Source: Escherichia phage vB_EcoM_EP57. From it: a stretch of DNA of 64,000 bases. The stretch lies in the sequence record OR544956; one strand, given 5' to 3'. Of this stretch, positions 3,941 to 54,081 are shown in pieces. The notes under the pieces were generated by a model. That model was not told the origin of the DNA and ran no database searches. It worked only from the letters and a program-made list of their open reading frames with translations. The translations under genes were made by a program, and so were the position numbers. How positions within the stretch are numbered: the first letter of the stretch is position 1; each line of letters begins with the position of its first letter.

Positions 3941-4950
3941 TATTTCTCCTTAGTCATTATTTCAGACACAGATACACACTCCACTTCAGTAACCCACTCT
4001 TTACCCTCTTTATCACCATTGTGAGAAACAGAAACAACTTTAAACGGACCATCATAATCTCGGCTTTTTAACCAGATTGTTTTTTCTGGTAATATTGCAC
4101 CATTCATTTGGCATTTGAATTTAACACCATCTGTAGGTTTCTTTGCCTTCTTAGAGGACTTGGTAACTTTTTTAGTAGGTTTTATATCGTTGTGGAATGG
4201 TTCTGGACTTCCTATCAGACCAGTTTCAGGGCTAATGTAGGCGCTACGTGCACTAGACATTTGTGAACGAGGAGTGACATAAACAGATCCATCTTGTATT
4301 GACACATTGTGATCAATACTTTTACAAATATGTTCTAGGTAATGTGAAGTGTTTCCACACATAGCTGTTGCTGAAGATAAGGTTTGATCATTATCTACGT
4401 GTATATTACCTTCTGTAGTTCCTAAATCCTTTACCAAATCTGTCACAACACGTTTGATTTTAGTTCCTTTTGGATAACTGCGGCTTGTTCTTGCTTCTGC
4501 AATGTTAATACCGCCATCCAAACAGTGTAAAGTGGTTTTCCTGTCTACCGAGTCAAAAGTATCACTAACCCACTGGATAGTTCCTTTGAAAATCATAACC
4601 AACTCTTCACCTTCGTATCCTACCGCTAAAGCAACAGCCAAGTTATTTCGGATACCACGGTTTATATAGTTAACAGTATCATCCGAAAGGTTATAAACTA
4701 CAATCTCTGCTTGGTTAGGATCTTTGTTATTATCTTTCTTAATACTGAAGGTTATTTGATGGTCTTGCAACAAATACAAATTAGAAGAGGATTTTTCTGT
4801 TGTTCCTAACTTGGTATCCAAATCTACTGTAGATTTAAATGCCGAGTTCTTAGTTCTCTTCTGTATTGTGTTTGTGGCAGAACCAATTAATAGTTTGTAT
4901 GCCCTGTTTAAATTAGGGGCAGGAGCTTTTGTATACTCTCTTTCTGCCAT
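3940..4950 (-). CDS. baseplate protein
   Basis: 336-aa ORF; start overlaps stop of upstream gene. Confidence 0.35.
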   Translation of the reverse strand: MAEREYTKAPAPNLNRAYKLLIGSATNTIQKRTKNSAFKSTVDLDTKLGTTEKSSSNLYLLQDHQITFSIKKDNNKDPNQAEIVVYNLSDDTVNYINRGIRNNLAVALAVGYEGEELVMIFKGTIQWVSDTFDSVDRKTTLHCLDGGINIAEARTSRSYPKGTKIKRVVTDLVKDLGTTEGNIHVDNDQTLSSATAMCGNTSHYLEHICKSIDHNVSIQDGSVYVTPRSQMSSARSAYISPETGLIGSPEPFHNDIKPTKKVTKSSKKAKKPTDGVKFKCQMNGAILPEKTIWLKSRDYDGPFKVVSVSHNGDKEGKEWVTEVECVSVSEIMTKEK

Positions 4951-4959
4951 ATTATCTCC

Positions 4960-5373
4960 TTACGCCTGATTAGGTTTGTTATCAATATAAACCAATACAA
5001 AACGTTTATCTCGACCTGTAGTTGTATACCCAGGACGACCATTAATCTTGACTGTATCTACTATATATAATTGACCATCTGGCACACTTTCAAGATATTT
5101 ATAAGGTTTAAGAAGATCTAAACCATTTGTAACTTTGAAACTTATACTCGGATCATCCCCAGATAATCCCATCTGACATTGCCAAGATTCGTCCCTAGTG
5201 TTCCACCTTAAACGAATGTCATAATCAACCCCATCCAATGTAACTGTATATGTTTGATCAGGGTACTCTTCAGTTTTCAGATACCATGCAAAATAAGTAG
5301 AATGGTCCTCCAGATAAACTGCACTGTAGCCTGTATTACTTGTAGACCTTGTTGTTTTAGAATAAGTTGTCAC
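4960..5373 (-). CDS. hypothetical tail protein
   Basis: 137-aa ORF in tail module. Confidence 0.3.
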   Translation of the reverse strand: MTTYSKTTRSTSNTGYSAVYLEDHSTYFAWYLKTEEYPDQTYTVTLDGVDYDIRLRWNTRDESWQCQMGLSGDDPSISFKVTNGLDLLKPYKYLESVPDGQLYIVDTVKINGRPGYTTTGRDKRFVLVYIDNKPNQA

Positions 5374-5375
5374 TA

Positions 5376-6077
5376 TTAACCTCCGTTGTTTGTTGGGGTA
5401 TTAGTAGCTTTGGCAGTTCTTACTGTAATATCTGACTTAGGACCATCCGAAGAAACTTGACCTTTCACATCACCACCAGTCGATTTATTTGGTGCTGTTT
5501 TTACAGCAATAGCATTAGTAGTGGCCTTAGAAACGAGACGGATTTGTTCGAACTCTAAATCAAATTGCATAGCAAATTCAGATTTATAATCATAAGAGTA
5601 GCCTTTGAGAATAACATTTTCAAAAGTTCTGTGTTCTGTCAAAAGAACTATTGGTTGTCTTGACTCAAATATTTGATCTAGATATTCTATTGCTTGAGAA
5701 ATCCTTGCACCATTTACACCTGCACTGTATAATTGATCTCGCATAAGCCGAATTGGTGTTTCGGTAATTATACCTGAAAGTTTAAATCTGTTGTTTTTTA
5801 TTTGAACGTGGTCACTTACATCCGATCCTGATTCTACTGGAAAACTTGTAACATCTGCCTCACGAGTTACACCTATTTCAGGGACTGAATCGAAAGTAAT
5901 TGCTTTAAAGTTTTGAATGTATTGATCACTTGAACTATTATAAACACTTGCTAAAATGCAGAAACCATTATCACCCTTTACAGTAGATGCCGAGGTATTT
6001 TTATTCTCGGTAGAGTTGATTTCCTGTTCTGCCTTATAGACGGCTCTCACCGACTGTTGTGGAGTCATTGCTGCCAT
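5376..6077 (-). CDS. hypothetical tail protein (distal tail / baseplate hub candidate)
   Basis: 233-aa ORF immediately downstream of tape measure gene. Confidence 0.3.
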   Translation of the reverse strand: MAAMTPQQSVRAVYKAEQEINSTENKNTSASTVKGDNGFCILASVYNSSSDQYIQNFKAITFDSVPEIGVTREADVTSFPVESGSDVSDHVQIKNNRFKLSGIITETPIRLMRDQLYSAGVNGARISQAIEYLDQIFESRQPIVLLTEHRTFENVILKGYSYDYKSEFAMQFDLEFEQIRLVSKATTNAIAVKTAPNKSTGGDVKGQVSSDGPKSDITVRTAKATNTPTNNGG

Positions 6078-8407: not shown

Positions 8408-8817
8408 CCGTAGTTTACCTCCAGAACTTTAGCAGTAAGATCTAACACTAGTTCTGGGTGAGCCATAAATAATTCATCAAAATTTTCTGCAACGTTATAA
8501 CCGTCTTGAGTATAAACCTCATCTAAAATTTTACGCAAAAATACAGTTAAATTCTTTTCTTCCAAACCTGCAAAAAGTTGGATCAGTGCCATAGCAATAC
8601 GTGACTCAAGGTCTTCGTCTGCGGACATTGTTGCTGTGCTATACATAGTCATAGGAACAACCAGAACACTACCCAATTCTGGAATCCTGTCAAACACTTT
8701 AGATGGACTCCACTTCATAATACGGAAAGTAACAGATCTGTTTCCATCTAACGGAATCTCAACTACTTCTTCTGGTCGAGCATATTTTTGAATCGTGTTA
8801 TCTTGTTCTTGTGACAT
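8335..8817 (-). CDS. tail assembly chaperone (G-like, zero-frame product)
   Basis: 160-aa ORF between tube and tape measure genes; slippery run near its 3' end. Confidence 0.5.
   Translation of the reverse strand: MSQEQDNTIQKYARPEEVVEIPLDGNRSVTFRIMKWSPSKVFDRIPELGSVLVVPMTMYSTATMSADEDLESRIAMALIQLFAGLEEKNLTVFLRKILDEVYTQDGYNVAENFDELFMAHPELVLDLTAKVLEVNYGPFFKRGFGKLFTQLQAMTSLAAN
8398..8407 (-). promoter_or_regulatory. programmed -1 ribosomal frameshift slippery site (CCCTTTTTTC)
   Basis: zero-frame codons GGC CCT TTT TTC; X_XXY_YYZ heptamer T_TTT_TTC. Confidence 0.45.
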
Positions 8818-8821
8818 ATTT

Positions 8822-8850
8822 TCCTCTCTAATGATAAAAAGGGCATTTCT
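8822..8850 (-). terminator. stem-loop plus T-run between tube and chaperone genes (attenuator candidate)
   Basis: minus strand AGGGCAGAAATGCCCT followed by TTTTATC. Confidence 0.3.
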
Positions 8851-8862
8851 GCCCTTTATTTA

Positions 8863-9314
8863 TTATTGAATTGTCAGAGCAGAGATTGAGTTAAGGGTGC
8901 TCAAACCTACACCAACTTCATTACGCAGAAGACTTGCATCTTTAAGACCAATAACCCATTGGTTCTCTGTAATCATTTCGCCAATAGTATCTTCAGGCTG
9001 ACTTTGAATCCATCCAATCGTGCTAATGTAATAGCCACGTGGGTCTTCCAAGTAAACACTGAACGCTACTTGACGAGTAGAATACATTGTTTGTGCATAT
9101 GTTGCAAGCAAGACATTGTGAGTGTTCCCAAACGGTTACGACTCAAAGCTAGTGAAACGTCGCCATCAGTCCCTGAATAAGGGTTGATAATATCGTTAGA
9201 TTTAGCAATAACGATTTTAGTATCAGCCGCAAAACCCCACGGTTCCCAACCACCTAATGAAAGGATAACTTGAGATGGGTCGTAGGCCATTACGCCAGTA
9301 AGCATTTTATCCAT
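8863..9314 (-). CDS. tail tube protein, interrupted by an apparent frameshift near 9111-9138
   Basis: two overlapping 82-aa ORFs in different frames (9066..9314 and 8863..9111); second has no RBS and TTG start; together ~145 aa, tube-sized, between sheath and chaperones. Confidence 0.4.
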
Positions 9315-9360
9315 TATAGATCCTCTTTATTTTGATAACGGGGGCTTAACCCCCGCCGTA

Positions 9361-10734
9361 TTAGTTTGCAGTACGGTTAGTCAGGACGTTGACCTGAACT
9401 TTAACGTAATGGAAGAAGCCAGCGTAAACATATTCAATCTTCATCCCATCGACCAGACGAGCATTGATTTGCGCATCAGTCATATCGGCACGAGAAGGAA
9501 TATAAACAATAGGTTTCAGATCGACACGCAAACCAGTCTCTTCAGAAGTAACAACTTCATTAGCGATGGAACCGTTGAGGATACCTACTTGGATTGGGTT
9601 AGCCAGAACAGCTTGTCGAATCAAAGCCAGACCGTTTGAAGTAGCACGAACACCACCACCCAGCATAGACTGTTGTTTAAACAGTGTAAACAGTGATTCT
9701 TCTGTGCGAGCTTTAAACCACAAAGCATGAACAACATAGTCAACAAAGAAACCGCTAACCATCAATCCATCACGATAGAACAGAGTTCCATGCTCTTTAC
9801 GATAGATGTTACCGTTCTGTTGAACAATATTGTTTTCCGAAGTCTGATCCAGTTTCTCGATCTCTACACCTACCAGTGTTTTACCGTGAAGAGTAGTTAA
9901 ACCAGGTTGACGAGAACAGATTGCACCAACAACTGCTGCTTCTGGGAATACAGAATCTGCATCGGTCATCCACAAAGCAAAGCAAGTGTTATTATAACCG
10001 AGGTCATTCAGTCGTTCCAGAACGTTATCTTCTGCTTTCGTTTTAATTCCAGGTTCAGAACTAGAGAAGAAGTAAACTTTATCATTCTCTTCTACCCATG
10101 CAGCCAAAGCTAGAACATCTTCTGTTTCATGGGAATCTGAAAGGGTCCAGAACCAGCTACTATCAATATCATGCAGAGCAGCGATATCTTCCGTAATAGC
10201 ATTAGCATAGACAGTTTCTTGAGTGAAACCTGTGCTGTCAATAGAACCAAACTTACCTTCTACTGGAGTGAAAGTCATTGCAGCGCCGTTGTTAGCTACT
10301 GTAAACAGTGGGCCATAAACAAGATCTGCATTGATCATTTCAGTCAGACCAACTACAATCTCTTGTGCAGTTGCAGTGTCATCAGCAATGAATTTAAATT
10401 CTTTTTTCTTGGTACCATTTTTGATGGTAATTGTGTAAGTTGCACTATCTTCTACGATTGGAGTTAGAGTAAAGTTTGTAACTTCACGCTTACCAACCAT
10501 GACTTGATCTGGTGGGAACAAACCGTTAAACAGTTTGACTGCCATAATATACGCTGGATCATTTAATCCATAACCTGCTTCCAAAAGTGCATCGGAAGAA
10601 GAGTAATATTGAATCGCTTCGCCAGTTACGTTCTGACCTGTAAGGATCAGGGGAATATCGAACTGGGTTTCACGAATTGATGTAGCACCATACAGTAAAG
10701 TTACGGTTGCTACCTTTTCACGAAAAGTTGCCAT
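9361..10734 (-). CDS. tail sheath protein (or major tail protein)
   Basis: 457-aa ORF immediately upstream of tube and chaperone genes; hairpin after its stop. Confidence 0.4.
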   Translation of the reverse strand: MATFREKVATVTLLYGATSIRETQFDIPLILTGQNVTGEAIQYYSSSDALLEAGYGLNDPAYIMAVKLFNGLFPPDQVMVGKREVTNFTLTPIVEDSATYTITIKNGTKKKEFKFIADDTATAQEIVVGLTEMINADLVYGPLFTVANNGAAMTFTPVEGKFGSIDSTGFTQETVYANAITEDIAALHDIDSSWFWTLSDSHETEDVLALAAWVEENDKVYFFSSSEPGIKTKAEDNVLERLNDLGYNNTCFALWMTDADSVFPEAAVVGAICSRQPGLTTLHGKTLVGVEIEKLDQTSENNIVQQNGNIYRKEHGTLFYRDGLMVSGFFVDYVVHALWFKARTEESLFTLFKQQSMLGGGVRATSNGLALIRQAVLANPIQVGILNGSIANEVVTSEETGLRVDLKPIVYIPSRADMTDAQINARLVDGMKIEYVYAGFFHYVKVQVNVLTNRTAN

Positions 10735-10768
10735 TTATGCTCCTGTTAGAAACTTAATTCCAATGAGT

Positions 10769-11407
10769 TTATTCGGTAGGGTTGTTAAATAATGATCCAT
10801 TTTGATTGACTGACGAGTATTCGCCTGGAACCAAAGTAATTGCATAAACCCTGTTTAGAATTAAATCTAAAGGGATAGGATCATTGTAACTATCTCTGAA
10901 TGAACGGATGTGCATGTTGATTGCTTCTATTGGTGTAGTAGCAATATCTTCAATACTCATACGAGTGTTGAACGTCATAACCATACGCGCTCTTAATTCA
11001 GTCTTATCTCCGTCTACAATTGTATTGGCTTGAGCTATATTGGAGGCTCCTAAAAAACCAAGACCTTTAGAATAGAGATGTTTGTATTTTAATTCCTCTG
11101 CACCACGGAGAGCAGCCAGAACATAGCTCATCAAAGTGGTAGGTCTTCCACGATAGGCTACAAGTTCAATCTCGTAGGTATTATCCATCTCGTAGGAATA
11201 CATATCATTTTGAATAGAGCTTCGGTAAGACCAACCTCCAGAATCGCTGGAAGTGATAATATGTAGTGCTAGGTAAGGAGTATCCGGTTTAATGAATGGC
11301 TTATCCATAACATAGACTGGCAACCCCACTAATTCTTGAAGGAAGCCACCTATATTTAAGTAGATGGCATTTTCGTATGCTTCTATTTGTTGGTAAATAT
11401 TAGCCAC
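10769..11407 (-). CDS. hypothetical head-tail joining / tail completion protein
   Basis: 212-aa ORF between head and tail modules. Confidence 0.3.
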   Translation of the reverse strand: MANIYQQIEAYENAIYLNIGGFLQELVGLPVYVMDKPFIKPDTPYLALHIITSSDSGGWSYRSSIQNDMYSYEMDNTYEIELVAYRGRPTTLMSYVLAALRGAEELKYKHLYSKGLGFLGASNIAQANTIVDGDKTELRARMVMTFNTRMSIEDIATTPIEAINMHIRSFRDSYNDPIPLDLILNRVYAITLVPGEYSSVNQNGSLFNNPTE

Positions 11408-11503
11408 TGTTCTGTTCCTTGTTGTAACCCCTTCATTTCTGTTTTAGTCCAGAAACTATATTGAGCCTTAGATCTGTAACCTTCAGGTAGTGCATTCAGT
11501 GTT

Positions 11504-11695
11504 TTACCAGATATCGGTTGTAAGCTTGCCTTCAATGGTAAATGGTTCATATTCTACACTACTTTCTAAGTTAGCAATAACTGAACCAACAGCCTCTTTG
11601 TAGACTCGTCTACGACCTTGGTATTCAGTTAGATCAAGGAGAGTAAATTGATCTAGTAACACTTGTATCTCCTTTTTAGTATACATCAAAAACAA
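11504..11695 (-). CDS. hypothetical protein
   Basis: 63-aa ORF, same strand, intergenic fit. Confidence 0.25.
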   Translation of the reverse strand: MFLMYTKKEIQVLLDQFTLLDLTEYQGRRRVYKEAVGSVIANLESSVEYEPFTIEGKLTTDIW

Positions 11696-11707
11696 AGTTT
11701 ATGCAAG

Positions 11708-12196
11708 TTATTTTTTAGACTTGCTTTTTGTGATTTTTGTTTCGATTGCATTTATCATGTGTGCCGTATCTATTAAGATATGATTAGAATAGTTTCCTTT
11801 ATCTTGTCGTATCTTAATTGTCACAGGAGACAAAGGACGATAACGTTGCATTGCAATCGCTTGAGCTATTCCTTCTCTAGAGGCTCTCGCTATAGGCTCA
11901 AAAACAGCTAACCCGACATTATTCATTAAGTAATTTGCAAACACCTGCTTCATCTTTTTAGCGATATCGTTCTGTGAGATAACAGCACCATCTGTTATAA
12001 AAGGGCGAGCAGGTATGTTATTTGTTTCATTACCATATTGTTGAATAGCTGCTATTGCAGGAATAGTGAGATCTGATTCAGGATGCCTTTTGTTTGTTAA
12101 AAAACCAGCTTCGATTTGAACTTGTTCAAGGTCCATCATCTTTTTGATAATGGTTTCCCAATCTGTATCGTCACCTGGTAAGATCTCACTTTCCAT
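11708..12196 (-). CDS. hypothetical head-tail connector protein
   Basis: 162-aa ORF; start overlaps upstream stop. Confidence 0.3.
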   Translation of the reverse strand: MESEILPGDDTDWETIIKKMMDLEQVQIEAGFLTNKRHPESDLTIPAIAAIQQYGNETNNIPARPFITDGAVISQNDIAKKMKQVFANYLMNNVGLAVFEPIARASREGIAQAIAMQRYRPLSPVTIKIRQDKGNYSNHILIDTAHMINAIETKITKSKSKK

Positions 12197-17981: not shown

Positions 17982-20057
17982 TTATCTTTTACGGACACTA
18001 TACGGTTGGTGAAATCCGCTGTTCATTCTACTGTATCCTGTAGGAGCATTTGTTGTTGTAGGGATAGCTACTGCTTTGAAAGTATTCTCTTTTGACAGAG
18101 TATTAAAACAAGAGGCAGCAGCATCGGGAATGTCATCTTTAATAGTGGCTGTAGATCTTTCACCATTGAAAGATTCCAATTCTTTATAAAAGTGGGTTAA
18201 AGTCTCCACATTAGGGAAAGAATCTTCAACAATATAAACAAAACCGTTTTGACACGCACTACTAAAAGGCATGAAACGCTGAAGCTTTTTCTTGTTACCT
18301 GGCATAGCATCTGGTTTAACAACAAAACCCTCTAGAATAAGTTTCTTTGCAGACTCTGTGTATTCTATTGTCCCAGCACCAGATGGGTCTTTAGGAAGCA
18401 CTACTGTAACTTCTGGTCCATCAATCTTACATTGATTTAGAATCAGGTTATCCCTTTCCCCAGGTAGTCTTCGAAACCTTCCGAAAATTTTACTTTTCTC
18501 ATCCACAGCATCATAATCATAGTCGCCAAAGATGTAGATATTACCATCTTGGTCTTTACCCATTTTGACAGATGTTGTATAGTCTGGATAACGGTAAGTT
18601 TCTGTAGGAACTGAAACAGCTTTATCCCATGCTCGCATTAGTTTAAGATTGTTAGGAACATCTTTATAAGATATTTTATGTAACCATTCACGTTGAAAGA
18701 AAGATTCTTTCTGGATACGTGCAAACCAACAACCGTCCAGAAGCTGTGCTCTTTTGATCGCTGTTTGTGATTTAAGCTGTGCTAAGTAATTAGGGTTAAG
18801 CCTAATGAGTTCTGGGTTATCAAATATTGTCCCACCAATAAATACGAAAGTTTGTGGTTCAATAACAACTGTCTCCCCTGTATTAGGGTTTTCCATGAAA
18901 CAGTTTTCTGGATATTTTTCTTTCAGTTCTTCAGGTGTGTCAGCAAAAACAGGTTCATCGTTAACAATGATGAAATATTTTTGTTTACCACACATATCTT
19001 CTCTAGGATAACCACCCTCATCAAGATAAGGTAACACCCAATTCAAAACCCAACTATCTGCGTCAGGGTTACATGTGCACAACATGAAACTTGTTTCTGA
19101 CTCTGAACGCATACGTCCCAGAAGATAGAGCATTTCATATTGTGTGAAGTGGGTTAACTCGTCAAAACCTACCATTGAATACTGTGTACCCTGATGGTTT
19201 GTTTCTGCTGTTACGTTATCATTTTCCAAATGGTCAAATTTGAGGGTTCCGCCACCAGTGGCTTCAAAAATGATATCCATTGTACTTTCTTTTACGTGTG
19301 GTTGTAAAGGAAGATACAAACGTTTTGCTTCTGTAAACAGACCACCTGGTTTACGGTGAGCAGTGGTGTTCTTACGGAAAAGTATTCCACCAAACAAAGG
19401 GTCTTTGTAGGCGTATTTTAAAGCTTTCAGCAATAGCAGACGAGACTTGCCGCTATTCCCAGTAACGAAGCAGTGATCGCCACGTCTAAAGACAATATAG
19501 CTGCTTGGAGTCTCAAAACAATATTTCTTATCATCTGTTGAAATAACCTCGTGTATTTTTAAGTAAGTGCTCTTTTTACCAGGTATGTTAAAAGGAACAC
19601 GTTTACCGAATGGATTTTCTACATAACCTTGCAGGGGTTTTCCTATTTGCTGTAATGCAATAAGATCTCCTACAAGAATCTCGAAATGTTTCTTTGATTT
19701 CTTTTTCTTATAGAATACAAAACGGTGTTCCATACTAAGTTCTTGGAATAATCCTACACCATTTGTTATTCTGTATAGGTTATCTCCATTTAAATCGTAT
19801 TCTACAAAATAAGGTGTTACCAATTCTAAACGCTTATTCTTAGGATTGTATTGGTAAATATCCTCTCCCGAATATTCACTAATCTGCCTCCAACCATCTT
19901 TTGTAAGATATTCCGTTTCAGCAGAAACACATCCAGCGGCACCACCATAAATCATAACCTCTGGCATTAAATCCATTGCAAGAGTCTGTTTACCTGGTTG
20001 AGCCTTTACTTCAATATCTACTCCAGCTAAACTACCTGCTGCCTTTTTCTTTGCCAC
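17982..20057 (-). CDS. terL: terminase large subunit (intein-containing precursor)
   Basis: Walker A split as GGAAG / SGKS around insert; Walker B MVGFDE; CTCNPDAD motif; 691 aa = ~532-aa terminase + 159-aa insert. Confidence 0.85.
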   Translation of the reverse strand: MAKKKAAGSLAGVDIEVKAQPGKQTLAMDLMPEVMIYGGAAGCVSAETEYLTKDGWRQISEYSGEDIYQYNPKNKRLELVTPYFVEYDLNGDNLYRITNGVGLFQELSMEHRFVFYKKKKSKKHFEILVGDLIALQQIGKPLQGYVENPFGKRVPFNIPGKKSTYLKIHEVISTDDKKYCFETPSSYIVFRRGDHCFVTGNSGKSRLLLLKALKYAYKDPLFGGILFRKNTTAHRKPGGLFTEAKRLYLPLQPHVKESTMDIIFEATGGGTLKFDHLENDNVTAETNHQGTQYSMVGFDELTHFTQYEMLYLLGRMRSESETSFMLCTCNPDADSWVLNWVLPYLDEGGYPREDMCGKQKYFIIVNDEPVFADTPEELKEKYPENCFMENPNTGETVVIEPQTFVFIGGTIFDNPELIRLNPNYLAQLKSQTAIKRAQLLDGCWFARIQKESFFQREWLHKISYKDVPNNLKLMRAWDKAVSVPTETYRYPDYTTSVKMGKDQDGNIYIFGDYDYDAVDEKSKIFGRFRRLPGERDNLILNQCKIDGPEVTVVLPKDPSGAGTIEYTESAKKLILEGFVVKPDAMPGNKKKLQRFMPFSSACQNGFVYIVEDSFPNVETLTHFYKELESFNGERSTATIKDDIPDAAASCFNTLSKENTFKAVAIPTTTNAPTGYSRMNSGFHQPYSVRKR
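19455..19931 (-). mobile_element. mini-intein (159 aa) inserted in the terminase P-loop
   Basis: starts CVSAETEYLT, internal SMEHRF (TxxH-like block), ends FVTGN followed by Ser; excision restores GGAAGSGKS. Confidence 0.7.
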
Positions 20058-20060
20058 TCC

Positions 20061-20405
20061 TTATTCAGCAATAATACCTTTTTCTTGCAGTGTTTTAATA
20101 TATGTTTGTAAACCTAGAACCTTTCGTCTATCTTGCTCCCAAAGAGCATTGTTTTGAGTTTGGTTGTTAACAACTTCAGATCTACTAACCCCTTTTGCAA
20201 TTTGATTTTTAGTGTATGGCACAGGTGTCGATACTTTATCCATCAAGTCCGAATCTGGACCTTTAACCTTTTCTATGGCTACAGCCTTACACTCATCAAT
20301 AAGAACTGGGGAAACTTTTGTTGATGATGAACAACCCGTCATCATTAGGGGCAAAGCAAGACATACTGCCAGAATTAGTTTTTGCATAATTCGTTGTATC
20401 CTCAT
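20061..20405 (-). CDS. o-spanin-like outer-membrane lipoprotein
   Basis: signal peptide with lipobox-like LMMTGC; overlaps the 3' part of the preceding gene out of frame (Rz/Rz1 arrangement). Confidence 0.45.
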   Translation of the reverse strand: MRIQRIMQKLILAVCLALPLMMTGCSSSTKVSPVLIDECKAVAIEKVKGPDSDLMDKVSTPVPYTKNQIAKGVSRSEVVNNQTQNNALWEQDRRKVLGLQTYIKTLQEKGIIAE

Positions 20406-20688
20406 TGATCGTTTGTTTCTTCTTCTCTAAATCTGCTTTTAATTGTGCATTGTTTTTAGACAAGTTGTTTATTTGAGTATTTAATAATGCTCTTTCTTCA
20501 TCTGCTCTTTTTTGAAGAACATCAAAATCTTGTTTTGCTTTTGCTTGGGCTGCTTGATATACTTGCGTTTGATAGGCAACACCATCTTTGTAGCCAGACT
20601 CACGTATCTTGTTATAAGCAAACATTCCGGCAAGAATAAGAACAACAATTAAAACAAAACTTAATACAGTTTTAGTCTTTAGATTCAT
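20296..20688 (-). CDS. i-spanin-like protein
   Basis: 130 aa, N-terminal transmembrane helix then charged coiled-coil region. Confidence 0.45.
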   Translation of the reverse strand: MNLKTKTVLSFVLIVVLILAGMFAYNKIRESGYKDGVAYQTQVYQAAQAKAKQDFDVLQKRADEERALLNTQINNLSKNNAQLKADLEKKKQTINEDTTNYAKTNSGSMSCFAPNDDGLFIINKSFPSSY

Positions 20689-20887
20689 TATCTTCTACTT
20701 CCTCATAAAATTTTATTTTAGGAAGAGAAGGGGCGTTGTTAACTATCTTCTTCACTTCCATTGGTTGAGCCTCCGCTAGGATCTCTTCCCAAGTCTTCTC
20801 TGTCATCATAAAGTTCTTCCTCCAAGTTCCAAGCCCGTGTGTAATCATTCTTTTTATCTTTATGATAAGAAGAACGGTTAAAATCAT
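20672..20887 (-). CDS. hypothetical protein (start uncertain; a 56-codon ORF with strong RBS at 20742..20909 overlaps in another frame)
   Basis: 71-aa track ORF; GAGGAGG precedes the alternative ATG at 20909. Confidence 0.2.
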   Translation of the reverse strand: MILTVLLIIKIKRMITHGLGTWRKNFMMTEKTWEEILAEAQPMEVKKIVNNAPSLPKIKFYEEVEDNESKD

Positions 20888-21049
20888 TTTTAACTACAAA
20901 ATTGCGCATATTTTATCCTCCTCATATCTGATCTTATCACAAAATGATATATAATTGCAAGCATTAAAAATAAAAAAGCCCCTAACCTTTCGGAGAGGGG
21001 TGTTAAAAATAACAAGGAGGAGGGGCAAAGCCCCAAGAGAGGAGAGGGA

Positions 21050-21346
21050 TTAGATTACGATCTTTTTAGGAACGTCATCTGTATTCTGCACGGCAGGGGT
21101 TTCTTCTTCCATAGCTTCATAATGTTCTTCTAACCATTCTTCTACTTGCTCTTTAATAGCTTTAGCTGCTTGGAAGCGGAGAGGTTTTGCTGCATCCTTA
21201 TCATTAACAAGTTCAACAATATACCGCATAGCTTCTAAATAATGCTCTGCAAATAATTCTTTTACACTTGCTTGCGCCGCATCCATTGCGTAAATCTGTT
21301 GCATTTCGGCTGTTGGTCTTCCACGACCACGTTTTAGTTTAGGCAT
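21050..21346 (-). CDS. hypothetical small basic protein
   Basis: 98 aa, N-terminal KLKRGRGRP; own promoter and RBS. Confidence 0.35.
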   Translation of the reverse strand: MPKLKRGRGRPTAEMQQIYAMDAAQASVKELFAEHYLEAMRYIVELVNDKDAAKPLRFQAAKAIKEQVEEWLEEHYEAMEEETPAVQNTDDVPKKIVI

Positions 21347-21368
21347 AATAAAATCCTCCTAAACTTTA

Positions 21369-21396
21369 TCTTAACATATAAAAAATAATAAGTCAA
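21369..21396 (-). promoter_or_regulatory. sigma70-like promoter upstream of 21050..21346
   Basis: minus strand TTGACT - 16/17 nt - TAAGAT, then AGGAGG RBS. Confidence 0.35.
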
Positions 21397-21413
21397 GTTT
21401 TATTCAATAGATA

Positions 21414-21437
21414 GCAAAAAGCCTCCAATAAGGAGGC
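21414..21437 (-). terminator. rho-independent terminator closing the tRNA operon
   Basis: minus strand GCCTCC-TTATT-GGAGGC followed by TTTTT. Confidence 0.6.
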
Positions 21438-21553
21438 TAATAAATACTGTTAAGTTGAAATGCTTTATTATAATTGTGCGTTAAGGAGTCGCACCCCTCC
21501 ATCTTAGAAGGAACCAGGCAAGGTCTTCAAAGATACCGCTGGCAAGCGATATT

Positions 21554-21632
21554 TGGAGGCGGGAATTGGATTTGAACCAATGATCTCCAGCATATGAAAC
21601 TGGCGAGGACGACCAGACTCCTCTATCCCGCT
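21554..21632 (-). tRNA. tRNA-Met (anticodon CAT), CCA encoded
   Basis: hand-folded cloverleaf; T arm ATTGG-TTCAAAT-CCAAT; anticodon loop TTCATAT; A1:C72 mismatch noted. Confidence 0.5.
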
Positions 21633-21638
21633 ATTATG

Positions 21639-21710
21639 TATCCCGTGCTGGATTCGAACCAGCATCACAATAAGCTGTGGAACTCTTATCCTGTAAGTCT
21701 AACGGGAAAC
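21639..21710 (-). tRNA. tRNA-like element, anticodon not resolved (possible pseudo-tRNA)
   Basis: T arm GCTGG-TTCGAAT-CCAGC and acceptor-like ends, but no canonical anticodon arm found by eye. Confidence 0.25.
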
Positions 21711-21784
21711 TGGTTGTTTCGACAAGAATCGAACTTGTGTCTCACGATTATCAGTCGTGGGTTCTACCATTGAACTACGAAACA
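21711..21784 (-). tRNA. tRNA-Ile (anticodon GAT), CCA encoded
   Basis: acceptor TGTTTCG/CGAAACA, D arm GTTC-AATGGTA-GAAC, anticodon arm CACGA-CTGATAA-TCGTG. Confidence 0.65.
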
Positions 21785-21790
21785 TTAAAT

Positions 21791-21867
21791 TGGTCGGAAT
21801 TGCAGGATTCGAACCTGCGACCCTACGCTCCCAAAGCGTATGCTCTACCAAACTGAGCTAAATTCCG
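21791..21867 (-). tRNA. tRNA-Pro (anticodon TGG), CCA encoded
   Basis: acceptor CGGAATT/AATTCCG, D arm GCTC-AGTTTGGTA-GAGC, anticodon arm TACGC-TTTGGGA-GCGTA. Confidence 0.65.
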
Positions 21868-21960
21868 TCATAACATTCTAAAGGTACACCGCAAAAGAAA
21901 GTGTTCGGCGGCTCCTCGTTTTTAACTTCACACTTGAGGTAGTGACTCACCTTTGTTATA

Positions 21961-25332: not shown

Positions 25333-26132
25333 GCAACTATCCAATTACAGGCGTAACCTATTCTTGTGTAGCAAAAGGTGGTTTATATACAGTAGTGGAA
25401 TTTCCAAAACCTGCCGGAATATCTAAAGTGTTTGATCCTGTGGTTATCTATGAAGATCTTAGAACAGGTCAACGTTACTGGAGATTTGTGAATGACTTTT
25501 TAGATCGTATGGAGGTAGTAAGTGGCGAAAACACCGAAGAAGTTATCAAAGCCAACGTTACTAAGAAACCGAAAAACGAGGTTCTCAAAGTAGCCAAATC
25601 AGTTCCTAAGAAAGATAAATTTGATACGGAGGCATTCGTCTTTGACACACCAATCGAGAAGATTGAAGAAGCGTTGCAACGTCTTGAGGAGCAGGAGGCA
25701 GATCCAATGGCTGAACCACTCGCTGAAGCAAAAAACATTGGTCGTTCCAATGAAACAACACCAGAAGAACAAGCTGAACTTGAAGCTTTTGCCAAATGGA
25801 CAAAACAGTTAAAGAATGGCTATTATAAAACAAAAGAAGAAGCTGAAAACCATGTTCCTTCCACACCAATGAAATGCCAGGATTATAAAGATTATCCTGA
25901 AAGGGTTGTGTTCCCTGGTTATGCACAATACAAACTGAACGGGTTACGTTCTATGATTAACATGAAAGGAGAGTGTTTATCAAAAGCTGGGGAAGTGTAC
26001 AACCTGCCACCTCATTGGAAAGGTATTCCAAACTTTATTAGTGAAGTTGTTGGTCATCCTCTTGATGGTGAAGTGTTTGCTGGGTTAGGTGTCCTTAGTC
26101 TGCAACAAATTAACAGTGCTTGCAGTAGTTGA
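25329..26132 (+). CDS. ATP-dependent DNA ligase-like nucleotidyltransferase, N-terminal part (motifs I and III); apparently split from 26089..26592
   Basis: KLNGLR (motif I, KxDG-like) and LDGEVF (motif III); frame ends 16 codons after motif III. Confidence 0.45.
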   Translation: MSNYPITGVTYSCVAKGGLYTVVEFPKPAGISKVFDPVVIYEDLRTGQRYWRFVNDFLDRMEVVSGENTEEVIKANVTKKPKNEVLKVAKSVPKKDKFDTEAFVFDTPIEKIEEALQRLEEQEADPMAEPLAEAKNIGRSNETTPEEQAELEAFAKWTKQLKNGYYKTKEEAENHVPSTPMKCQDYKDYPERVVFPGYAQYKLNGLRSMINMKGECLSKAGEVYNLPPHWKGIPNFISEVVGHPLDGEVFAGLGVLSLQQINSACSS

Positions 26133-42563: not shown

Positions 42564-43064
42564 ATGGCTAAAGTAGTAGATGAGTTTGATATGCTACGAG
42601 TCGATGAAGGACTGAAGCTTACTGTTTATCAAGACCATCTTGGTTATTGGACAGTCGGCATAGGACACCTTCTGACTAAAATAAAAGATAAAGCAAAGGC
42701 TATTCAAATCTTAGATAATCTTCTTGGTCGTAAGACTAATGGAGTTATCACAGAAAAAGAAGCCCGTCAAATCTTTGCTGATGATGTTGCAAAAGTGAAG
42801 AGAGACATAAAAAACAGTGCTATCTTATCACCAATCTATGATAAGGTTAGTGATACTCGTAAATTGGGAATAATCAACATGGTTTTCCAGTTGGGGTTAA
42901 AAGGTGCTGAAGGGTTTCAAAATAGCTTGACTTTAATCAGCAATGCATATTATACTCAAGCAGGTAAAAACATGCGTAAAAGCCGATGGTATAGCCAGAC
43001 GCCAAACCGTGCTGAACGAGTAATTAAAGTTCTGACTTCTGGAACTTTAGATGCTTACAACTAA
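42564..43064 (+). CDS. T4-type lysozyme (endolysin)
   Basis: MLRVDEGLKL...YQDHLGYWTVGIGHLLTK with catalytic Glu/Asp/Thr; SRWYSQTPNRAERVI matches T4 gene e lysozyme as recalled. Confidence 0.85.
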   Translation: MAKVVDEFDMLRVDEGLKLTVYQDHLGYWTVGIGHLLTKIKDKAKAIQILDNLLGRKTNGVITEKEARQIFADDVAKVKRDIKNSAILSPIYDKVSDTRKLGIINMVFQLGLKGAEGFQNSLTLISNAYYTQAGKNMRKSRWYSQTPNRAERVIKVLTSGTLDAYN

Positions 43065-43860
43065 TAAAGGGGCTTCGGCCCCTTCTAAAAGGAGTGCTAC
43101 TATGGGAAATAAAACCGCAGCTAAAACACAACGGCAGAAACTGGCTAATTCAGCAAAGATTGAAAGCCGTTATGCAGCAAAAGCGGTAGGTAATGACGAT
43201 TACCGTTTAGATGAATTTATGCCTGAAGGGGACCAAAATAAGATTGTTCAAAGCATGATTTGGAATGATCTGACTGTTGTAAATGCTCCGGCAGGGACTG
43301 GTAAAACCTCTGTTGCTTTATGGAAAGCTTTGCAGATGCTTCGTTCAGGAGACTTCCGTAAACTACTTTTTATCAAGAACCCTACTGAAGTCGGAGATGA
43401 CCAGATTGGTTTCTTGTCTGGAGATAAAACAGATAAACTAGCAGCACACTATGAATCTACAAAACGTATTTTCCAGCAATTCATGACAGCCAACAAATTG
43501 GAAAACGACATTGGATCAGGTAAGATCGAATTGAATATTCCTAACTATTTGTTGGGGGCCACCCTGGATAATACAATCGTCATTATTGACGAAGCACAAC
43601 TTATGTCAACAGAAACACTTAAACTTCTTATTGAACGTGCAGGTATTAATACGCATGTTATTGTATTAGGCGATGTTCGCCAGACATATGCAATTAAAAA
43701 ACGTAGCAATGGTCTGCATCAAATTTTGGAACTTTTATATCCAGAAAATGAAGAAGGTGTTCGTGAGCCAATTGTAGATTTTATTGGATACGTTGAACTG
43801 ACAACGGACGATAATAAACGTGGACGTTTGTCTAAACTGATTACTGAAGTGTTTATTTAA
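43051..43860 (+). CDS. phoH: PhoH-like ATPase
   Basis: Walker A NAPAGTGKTS; IIDEAQ Walker B; 269 aa. Confidence 0.75.
   Translation: MLTTNKGASAPSKRSATMGNKTAAKTQRQKLANSAKIESRYAAKAVGNDDYRLDEFMPEGDQNKIVQSMIWNDLTVVNAPAGTGKTSVALWKALQMLRSGDFRKLLFIKNPTEVGDDQIGFLSGDKTDKLAAHYESTKRIFQQFMTANKLENDIGSGKIELNIPNYLLGATLDNTIVIIDEAQLMSTETLKLLIERAGINTHVIVLGDVRQTYAIKKRSNGLHQILELLYPENEEGVREPIVDFIGYVELTTDDNKRGRLSKLITEVFI
43068..43082 (+). terminator. GGGGCTTCGGCCCC stem-loop without a clear T-run
   Basis: same hairpin as at 36914 and 54099, followed only by TT. Confidence 0.25.
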
Positions 43861-43895
43861 TAACATGGCAGGGAAGCCATTTATAAGGAGGATTG

Positions 43896-44396
43896 ATGGG
43901 TGTAGCAACAATAGCTATCGGAAGAAGCGGTATAGATGAGTGCTATCAAACGGGACTCGTAAAACCTAACGAATTTCGTCAAATTTGTGTAAACCATATT
44001 GAAAAAGAGATTGCTCTTACTTTAGAGAATATGACCCTCCGAGATAAACTGGAAATGTTTAAATGTTGGTGTCTAGGAGAAGATTGGCTTTTAAACCATT
44101 TTCAAGAACTTTCTGATAGTAAAGAAAGCTTGTTTGATTGTATAATAGGAATAGCTGGCTCCGATCCTAGCCTTCTGCACATAACAGAAGAAGAGGCGAA
44201 GTTACTGTTCTTAAGTAATTTGTTTAATAAGAAAGCACTGCTTGTTCGTGATTGCAGTGATCTTCTTAATAACCCGCTCGCAACGTCTGATCAAATTTTT
44301 GTTGACAAAGAGACACTACGTGCGATAGAATACATCTGCAAATATGTGAATGGTGGGAAAGCGGTTCTTAAAACATTAACAGAGGAGGAAGAATAG
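43896..44396 (+). CDS. hypothetical protein
   Basis: ATG at 43896 after AGGAGG. Confidence 0.4.
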   Translation: MGVATIAIGRSGIDECYQTGLVKPNEFRQICVNHIEKEIALTLENMTLRDKLEMFKCWCLGEDWLLNHFQELSDSKESLFDCIIGIAGSDPSLLHITEEEAKLLFLSNLFNKKALLVRDCSDLLNNPLATSDQIFVDKETLRAIEYICKYVNGGKAVLKTLTEEEE

Positions 44397-44998
44397 TGAC
44401 GACAATTATTGCAACCAAAAATAAGATTTTGAGTGATGGTAAGGTAACTTTTGGTGGACGTGTAGATTCTATTAATTTCAAAAAGGTCCGAAAAATTGGA
44501 GATTACCTTGTGGGTGGTGCTGGTCGTCTGACCTCCGTGCTTTCTTTCTTTCAATGGTTTGAACAAAATCTACAGTGCGAAGCAGCACGTGATGCTGTCC
44601 CTGGTTTGATGATTCACTCTGATCCAGATAAAGAAGATGAAGAGTTTATTGCACTTGTTGTTCATCCAGACGGACGTATTTTCCTGCACGAAGGTAACAA
44701 CCCAACACGTGCATATCCGATTGATGAAGAATATTATGCGGTAGGAAGTGGGTCAGACTTTGCTTTAGCTGCTCTTGATGCAGGGGCAACACCAGAACAG
44801 GCTATGGAAGTAGCTAAAAAGCGAGATGCTTTTTCTGGTGGTGAAACATTTATTGAAGAACAAGACGAGATTATTGAATTAACAGACGATGATTTAGAAA
44901 ACTTCTCCAAAGAAGAATTGATCAATCTTTTGAAATTCGGTAATCCCTACGGTGAAGAAGAACCTCGTAACGTGGCAGGGTTGCAGAAAACAACTTGA
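44396..44998 (+). CDS. HslV-like (proteasome beta-type) peptidase
   Basis: N-terminus MTTIIATKNK...GGRVDS...KVRKIGDYLVGGAGR parallels HslV with Thr nucleophile after Met; 200 aa. Confidence 0.55.
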   Translation: MTTIIATKNKILSDGKVTFGGRVDSINFKKVRKIGDYLVGGAGRLTSVLSFFQWFEQNLQCEAARDAVPGLMIHSDPDKEDEEFIALVVHPDGRIFLHEGNNPTRAYPIDEEYYAVGSGSDFALAALDAGATPEQAMEVAKKRDAFSGGETFIEEQDEIIELTDDDLENFSKEELINLLKFGNPYGEEEPRNVAGLQKTT

Positions 44999-45066
44999 CT
45001 TCTAAATCTGAAAATATTAATCTCGTAAATGTGGCGGATTTCGAAGGAACCGCTATTTAACAAACT

Positions 45067-45087
45067 GCCCCTTCGGGGGCATTTCTT
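45067..45087 (+). terminator. stem-loop GCCCC-TTCG-GGGGC with weak T-tract
   Basis: hairpin followed by ATTTCTT. Confidence 0.3.
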
Positions 45088-53829: not shown

Positions 53830-54081
53830 TGTTTCAATGCACATTGGTTGGTGAGCAAACTAAAAGAAAAAGAGAAACCATTTCCTACTCTGCTTGATCG
53901 TTCTCTTGTGGAAGATGCAGGTAAAGCATATGCAGACTATGCGTATGCAGACGGGAAATATTTGGAAGATGATAAGGCTAACCATTTGCTTTATGTTTAC
54001 TATGAAGCTGAATCTGCCTACGATAATTATTACAGCATGTCTAACATCCTACGTCTGTTTGCAGAGTTTGATATTTATTAA
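53830..54081 (+). CDS. hypothetical protein, apparently frameshifted in an A-rich run (ATG 53830 frame closes after 22 codons; 77-aa frame from 53848)
   Basis: strong RBS and ATG at 53830; downstream frame lacks RBS and starts TTG; homopolymer-rich aaactaaaagaaaaagagaaacc at junction. Confidence 0.3.
   Translation, partial: CFNAHWLVSKLKEKEKPFPTLLDRSLVEDAGKAYADYAYADGKYLEDDKANHLLYVYYEAESAYDNYYSMSNILRLFAEFDIY

Follow-up and report, generated by a model that had tools for sequence, protein, structure and literature searches.

An orphan proteasome homologue, probably of the PPH/RPC lineage and distinct from HslV, in the Phapecoctavirus EP57

Introduction

Phage proteasome homologues of the PPH and RPC families were described by Fuchs, Alva and Lupas in 2021 (PMC8665760). 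PPH comprises about 140 residues with no extension, while RPC carries a C-terminal extension and is reported from proteobacterial records only. PPH/RPC "lacks the second helix (H2)", a loss otherwise reported only for connectase, which is without both H1 and H2, and no co-occurring AAA+ partner was found for these families (PMC8665760). The representatives given in that paper are WP_042125023.1 for PPH and WP_140207863 for RPC. BPH, which has no unfoldase, possesses a long acidic pore loop, whereas the pore loop of HslU-gated HslV is short (PMC8665760). On its own, HslV has little peptidase activity, and none is seen for Anbu in vitro (PMC6429459, PMC6376114).

Thousands of phage proteasome homologues are known, and the question is what a virus does with a proteasome-like peptidase without an unfoldase. 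HslV genes without HslU have been remarked upon in a Salmonella jumbo phage (PMC7823757). Literature searches for a functional study of phage HslV-like proteins found none, only annotation-level remarks. Here, such a gene in Escherichia phage EP57 is compared with these described systems.

The peptidase gene and its start

The DNA analysed is a single stretch of 64 kb from phage EP57, hereafter the window. It is Phapecoctavirus DNA, from an E. coli myovirus of phAPEC8 type that belongs to the Stephanstirmvirinae and has a genome of about 150 kb. The window is ~99% identical to phage tuntematon (NC_052660.1). A preliminary description of the window had reported an open reading frame with a Met-Thr-Thr start as an HslV-like peptidase. 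Its exact coordinates and M-T-T N-terminus were confirmed, with GTG as the start codon.

44396..44998, plus strand: PPH/RPC-type proteasome/HslV-like peptidase gene, 200 aa, GTG start, M-T-T N-terminus
44382..44388, plus strand: Shine-Dalgarno sequence GAGGAGG, 7 nt upstream of the GTG, read from the sequence

The frame opens GTG-ACG-ACA, and the protein starts M-T-T-I-I-A. Since 44396 is the earliest start codon possible downstream of an in-frame stop, a longer N-terminus is impossible. The GTG (44396-44398) shares one base with the TAG stop (44394-44396) of the preceding gene, ORF167, and the resulting TAGTG overlap suggests translational coupling between ORF167 and the peptidase. A strong sigma-70-like match (TTGACA, 18-nt spacer, TAGAAT; 11/12) lies within ORF167 on the plus strand at 44302-44331, ~65 nt upstream of the peptidase start; an internal promoter is conceivable, although the match is to the consensus only. 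In RefSeq and in the records of several GenBank depositors, the gene already goes by "peptidase HslV family", "ATP-dependent protease subunit HslV" or "putative proteasome component"; it is known at the annotation and bioinformatic level.

Fold and catalytic residues

Sequence profiles and structure prediction were employed to place the protein. It passed the Pfam Proteasome model PF00227 with 26.2 bits against a gathering score of 22.4 (E=7.5e-6), and matched the PHROG 1040 'peptidase HslV family' with E=5.6e-60. Among solved structures, HslV gave the best sequence matches, with E=3.8e-9 for T. maritima 1m4y. The monomer of P0001, a full-length family member of 230 aa, was modelled with AlphaFold2 at a mean pLDDT of 82.6, with the core at residues 1-155 mostly above 90. 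Foldseek searches with this model returned HslV, BPH and 20S beta chains at the top with a probability of 1.00 and target-normalised TM scores of 0.65-0.69, matching the alpha-beta-beta-alpha Ntn sandwich; against BFVD, the model matches at least 48 phage proteins. The resemblance to HslV and the proteasome is far beyond chance. The Ntn/HslV-type peptidase fold that had been claimed, with a profile search as its check, is borne out by Pfam, PHROG, the PDB HslV matches and the AlphaFold2 and Foldseek results alike.

44396..44860, plus strand: catalytic Ntn core, aa 1-155, from the family alignment, the AlphaFold2 model and hhalign

Residues T2, D14, K30 and G117-S118-G119 are unchanged across 54 family members. 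Alignment of the family to E. coli HslV by hhalign (probability 96.3%) pairs the catalytic residues with T1, D17, K33 and S124 of HslV. The methionine aminopeptidase of E. coli strips Met ahead of small residues, Thr among them, and the mature protein should therefore expose a free Thr1 in the manner of HslV. Thr2 would then become the mature Thr1 and serve as the nucleophile, together with the conserved Asp, Lys and GSG loop. This conserved catalytic set indicates that the protein is most likely an active threonine peptidase.

Placement among proteasome homologues

In the model, H1 spans aa 45-67 and is followed by a coil at aa 68-83, the position expected for H2. The coil, VPGLMIHSDPDKEDEE, is acidic and proline-containing, and the block has pLDDT values of 79-94. 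The absence of H2 is read from one AlphaFold2 model and the published tFold models. Helices H3 and H4 and the beta-sandwich are kept, with the H3-H4 region 9 residues shorter than in HslV. A first MAFFT alignment had put ~14 missing residues near H2; this was rejected on the hhalign register, which leaves ~4 missing and pairs the four strands one-to-one.

The features shared with PPH/RPC are the group-I (HslV/BPH-like) compact core, the Thr/Asp/Lys triad with no propeptide, and the absence of H2 with H1, H3, H4 and the triad retained. The setting is also shared, namely a tailed phage of a proteobacterium with no co-occurring AAA+ protein. The core of ~155 residues is somewhat longer than the ~140 residues of PPH. 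Core plus C-terminal extension is an RPC-like architecture, yet the gene is clearly phage-borne like PPH. An exhaustive profile search gave ~57 cluster representatives at E<=1e-30, mostly of 180-350 aa with extensions. They are trailed by a large cloud of proteins, 137-160 aa long and with an MTT start, that score ~100 bits (4,209 representatives at E<=1e-10). The 155-aa core with its extension fits RPC, while the nearest large sequence neighbourhood (137-160 aa) fits PPH. By the described traits, the peptidase is most likely a member of the phage PPH/RPC lineage. Relatives are carried by 239 phage records, from phages of Escherichia, Vibrio, Caulobacter, Aeromonas, Rhizobium and others.

Two further groups share the fold. 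BPH (PDB 5OVS/5OVT) is a near-top structural match to the model (E=2e-10). Like the phage peptidase, it is acidic in the pore-loop region, and no unfoldase is known for it (PMC8665760, PMC5777263). However, the sequence similarity between them is negligible (E=0.57), and BPH is a chromosomal bacterial protein that keeps H2 and forms heptameric double rings. The 20S proteasome beta subunits share the Ntn fold and the catalytic triad with the phage peptidase, in line with the passed PF00227 model. The phage protein differs from them in having no alpha-subunit partner and no propeptide and in its much smaller size, with 13-20% identity in structural alignments.

Relation to HslV and to host HslU

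HslV (ClpQ) has in common with the phage peptidase the fold and an N-terminal Thr that is freed when Met is cleaved off, and its Asp17, Lys33 and Ser124 loop are conserved in the phage protein. The identity to E. coli HslV is 27%, and the phage, unlike the E. coli system, has no hslU gene; the phage protein is also extended at its C-terminus, by 45-75 aa or more. The NCBIfam HslV equivalog models NF003964 and TIGR03692 have cut-offs of 137 and 157.75 bits; the phage protein reaches 32.7 and 31.9 bits, while E. coli HslV, run as a control, passes with 302 and 288 bits. Five residues of E. coli HslV, F54, F57, A79, K80 and Q114, are reported to line the pocket for the HslU C-terminus (PMC6429459). 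By hhalign, a sequence mapping that is to be taken as indicative, the phage equivalents are F54 to L, F57 to F, A79 to D, K80 to P and Q114 to P, with one of the five kept. The equivalent of HslV Lys80 sits in the acidic coil of the phage peptidase. The phage peptidase is not an HslV orthologue. The earlier statement that it follows the HslV pattern is not supported in that form, and the pattern is not closely kept, as the equivalog cut-offs are missed by more than 100 bits, H2 is absent and four of the five pocket residues differ.

It had been proposed that the phage protein could borrow host HslU or ClpX; in this model, its HslV-like rings would dock HslU or another host AAA+ unfoldase and redirect ATP-dependent degradation to host or phage proteins. 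This proposal draws on the HslV-like catalytic machinery and overall fold, and on the hslVU genes that E. coli encodes. Furthermore, the phages in the collection that carry sequence-level relatives all infect Proteobacteria, which encode HslU, and HslV-type peptidases are weak unless activated (PMC6429459). Against it stand the H1/H2 face without H2, the altered pocket with Lys80 in an acidic coil, scores of ~32 bits where the HslV equivalog cut-offs are 137 and 158, and the lack of any AAA+ association seen for PPH/RPC (PMC8665760). Judged from sequence and the model, the remodelled H1/H2 region and the altered pocket residues argue against canonical HslU docking. Borrowing of host HslU is possible but disfavoured, and is considered unlikely.

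AAA+ genes in the phage genome

E. coli HslU, ClpX, Lon and ClpP were used as tblastn queries. No homologue of HslU, ClpX or Lon was found in the 64-kb window, even at E<=10, in agreement with the earlier statement that the window holds no AAA+ unfoldase gene. In the complete tuntematon genome, HslU and Lon likewise gave no match at E<=10, and the ClpX query touched only the Walker region of a generic AAA protein, gp054 (E=3.6e-4). The tuntematon annotations list no relevant unfoldase partner gene. An HslU homologue just outside the window had been named as the finding that would overturn the orphan assignment; in this 99%-identical relative there is none, adjacent or elsewhere. The orphan status holds genome-wide and family-wide, and is not special to phage EP57.

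The gp054 protein (379 aa, classical-type AAA) is encoded outside the window, at tuntematon 19702-21909 on the minus strand, together with gp053, a CapR-domain/T5orf172 nuclease-like protein. Members of the gp054 AAA family occur widely, in phages of the Herelleviridae type, in jumbo phages and in crAss-like phages.

As the phage's own unfoldase, gp054 would be the candidate partner. It clears the Pfam model AAA (PF00004) with E=8.7e-7, the closest solved structures are of classical-clade unfoldases including Rix7, AFG2, p97 and VAT, though at no better than E ~5e-4 to 7e-3, and the gene is present in all Stephanstirmvirinae examined. However, it lies ~44-106 kb from the peptidase gene with the nuclease-like gene as its neighbour. 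Members of the family abound in phages of Enterococcus, Bacillus, Staphylococcus and Lactococcus and in crAss-like phages, which lack the peptidase, and do not appear in the organism tally for peptidase-bearing Vibrio (36 records), Caulobacter (28) and Rhizobium (13) phages. On distribution and genomic location, gp054 was rejected as the partner, and a pairing of the two proteins is regarded as very improbable.

The upstream neighbour ORF167

The gene whose stop codon overlaps the peptidase start lies in a conserved block.

43893..44396, plus strand: ORF167 (phrog_14834), conserved upstream neighbour, mostly helical, neither an ATPase nor of proteasome fold
43051..43860, plus strand: PhoH-like P-loop ATPase, not AAA+, syntenic, two genes upstream of the peptidase

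Every one of the 133 Stephanstirmvirinae records has ORF167 directly ahead of the peptidase. The same adjacency is seen in divergent metagenomic phage contigs in which the peptidase is 45-48% identical (hhalign 99.5-99.9%). The gene order in these contigs is glutaredoxin, lysozyme, PhoH, ORF167, peptidase and metallophosphatase. Because the whole block is syntenic, the adjacency of ORF167 alone is no proof of a functional link, and the association of ORF167 with the peptidase is offered as a lead and not as a finding.

The AlphaFold2 model of ORF167 (pLDDT 92) is mostly helical and has no Foldseek match in the PDB (best E=0.18). With no Pfam, NCBIfam or PADLOC match in addition, ORF167 was rejected as a recognisable adaptor or ATPase. 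It was also rejected as a second, divergent proteasome-fold subunit, given an hhalign probability of 0.6% against the peptidase family and the mostly helical model. A weak match over a motif of 23-32 residues (E=0.008-0.028) links ORF167 to genes upstream in Vibrio and Aeromonas phages. PADLOC gave no matches that would associate the locus with defence or anti-defence.

The idea of a second subunit had come from a tandem arrangement in Aeromonas phage 4L372XY, where 4432-5828 holds two HslV-family genes of 183 aa and 275 aa. Of these, the upstream one has an MTC start and a PHROG 1040 match of E=9.6e-26. Such a tandem paralogue is confined to the Aeromonas lineage, and the arrangement hints at a possible hetero-oligomeric phage proteasome homologue there.

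Mode of action and dispensability

In the preferred reading, held to be probable, the protein is an ATP-independent accessory peptidase of the PPH/RPC lineage with no dedicated unfoldase. It would self-assemble, probably into a ring-forming assembly, and cleave peptides or unfolded or disordered proteins during infection, by analogy with the action proposed for BPH and uncapped 20S particles. The phage segment that stands in for H2 and the pore loop is acidic; its counterpart to the acidic pore loop of BPH is DPDKEDEE by hhalign, and the outward-facing acidic tail may be an interaction or gating element. Given the poor activity of HslV alone and the inactivity of Anbu, an activator for the phage peptidase may well be required.

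One extension of this reading would make the peptidase and ORF167 a two-component, ATP-independent phage protease. Here ORF167 or the acidic tail would be the activator, gate or substrate recruiter, the role of HslU for HslV, and specific host proteins would be degraded during takeover. The analysis gives this a rather slim chance.

Alternatively, the protein may not be a degradative protease but a sequence-specific processing enzyme, a ligase (cf. connectase) or a non-catalytic binding protein, possibly acting with ORF167. Proteasome homologues include a monomeric ligase, as well as Anbu with no detectable peptidase activity (PMC8665760, PMC6376114). The conserved, partner-like ORF167 without a fold match stands immediately upstream, and the loss of H2 may not suit stacked rings. 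However, catalysis is favoured by the invariance of the full Thr/Asp/Lys/GSG set; H3, H4 and the beta-sandwich are retained, and no feature points specifically to ligase chemistry. A non-degradative role is therefore deemed improbable, and the ATP-independent peptidase remains the preferred reading.

Phage VEcB (NC_052663.1) carries, at 2165-2968, a single 267-aa ORF that fuses the N-terminal part of PhoH to the peptidase from residue 63 onward. The deletion removes the Thr1 nucleophile and all of ORF167. VEcB is an isolated, viable Justusliebigvirus and thus a natural peptidase knockout. Because a viable phage has the gene destroyed, the peptidase is dispensable, an accessory and non-essential gene. 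A tractable E. coli phage with a conserved neighbour gene, together with the natural knockout VEcB, provides a reasonable entry point to the function of such peptidases. More than 60 sequenced Phapecoctavirus isolates give the same opportunity with the gene intact, and the window itself adds little.

The C-terminal extension and a private 28-nt deletion

Beyond the core, the protein continues into an extension that is truncated in the window copy.

44861..44979, plus strand: acidic extension of the C-terminus, conserved, in which aa 164-181 are predicted to form a helix-turn-helix
44979..44980, plus strand: junction of a private 28-nt deletion; CAACGAGGCGGATACTGAAGAAAAATAT is present in relatives
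44980..45060, plus strand: ancestral tail remnant, out of frame and uninterrupted, VAENNLTSKSENINLVNVADFEGTAI, with TAA at 45058-45060
45066..45081, plus strand: terminator-like GC hairpin, TGCCCCTTCGGGGGCA, then TTTCTT, a consensus match only

The family motif of the extension at aa 164-181 is ELT..L..hSKEELL.LL.G. The tail that follows the helix-turn-helix is predicted to be disordered and varies in length and sequence among relatives, whose total lengths are ~200-350 aa and whose tails have net charges of -7 to -23. Relative to tuntematon, 28 nt are deleted after 44979, and the frameshift gives a protein of 200 aa in place of the ancestral 230. The C-terminus now reads ..PRNVAG-LQKTT-stop, with 5 residues replacing 35 that end in NLVNVADFEGTAI. 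The terminator-like hairpin is located just past the ancestral stop codon. The 28 nt are kept in all 64 related phage records, and the exact 200-aa product is absent from the assembly collection; on these grounds, the 200-aa form was rejected as a recurrent natural variant. The gene family has been described before, and the private tail truncation is what is new here.

The lost tail is the least conserved part of the protein and is predicted to be disordered (pLDDT <50 for 192-224), so that, going by the model, its loss has probably not disabled the enzyme. In the window copy, the catalytic core is whole, as is the conserved helical segment. A decaying or misassembled pseudogene without function would agree with a frameshift found in none of the 64 relatives, a product without a record in the assembly collection, and the many further private deletions in the window, one of which splits a virion structural gene. 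On the other hand, the loss is limited to the variable, disordered tail, the start site, ribosome-binding site and core are preserved together with the conserved helical segment, and no additional decay is seen in the remnant downstream. Very little weight is given to the pseudogene, and a functional peptidase with a shortened tail is preferred. Since the 28-nt truncation is one among many private deletions, it may itself be an assembly or sequence artefact.

Deletions across the window

Over the 64 kb, the differences between the window and tuntematon are all deletions in the window, with zero insertions. There are 17 short deletions (1-38 nt) and 11 larger gaps (39-4044 nt), at positions such as 395, 1615, 6604, 9110, 11406, 24504, 25721, 44980, 46576, 53837, 54079 and 56910, and many are not multiples of 3. 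Four were spot-checked, a 28-nt and a 10-nt deletion near the peptidase and a 28-nt and a ~151-nt deletion in the structural region, and all four are private to the window. In the structural region, window 8500-12000 has 3501 nt as compared to 3683 nt in all 25 listed relatives. The 28-nt deletion there, within window 8863-9314 on the minus strand, splits the homologue of tuntematon gp151, a virion structural protein of 159 aa, into two overlapping 82-aa ORFs. A block of 4044 nt (tuntematon 103900-107943), which includes an HNH endonuclease and a phosphoesterase, is absent at 25721/25722, and 871 nt, most of the Sir2-like gene gp208, are absent at 54079. The window sequence looks degraded, misassembled or altered, and as given it is unlikely to be that of a viable phage genome.

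Additional C-terminal modules in relatives

A HeH/Rho_N-like, nucleic-acid-binding C-terminal motif was considered and rejected, as it gave one sub-threshold Pfam match (Aeromonas gp206, E=0.0066) and was absent in seven other long homologues. Some long family members of 274-350 aa, the metagenomic relatives P0061, P0062, P0064 and P0070, have an additional Trp-rich module at the C-terminus that ends in ..W(K/R)(L/V).., for which Pfam gave no match. The variable tail has evidently gained different domains in different lineages.
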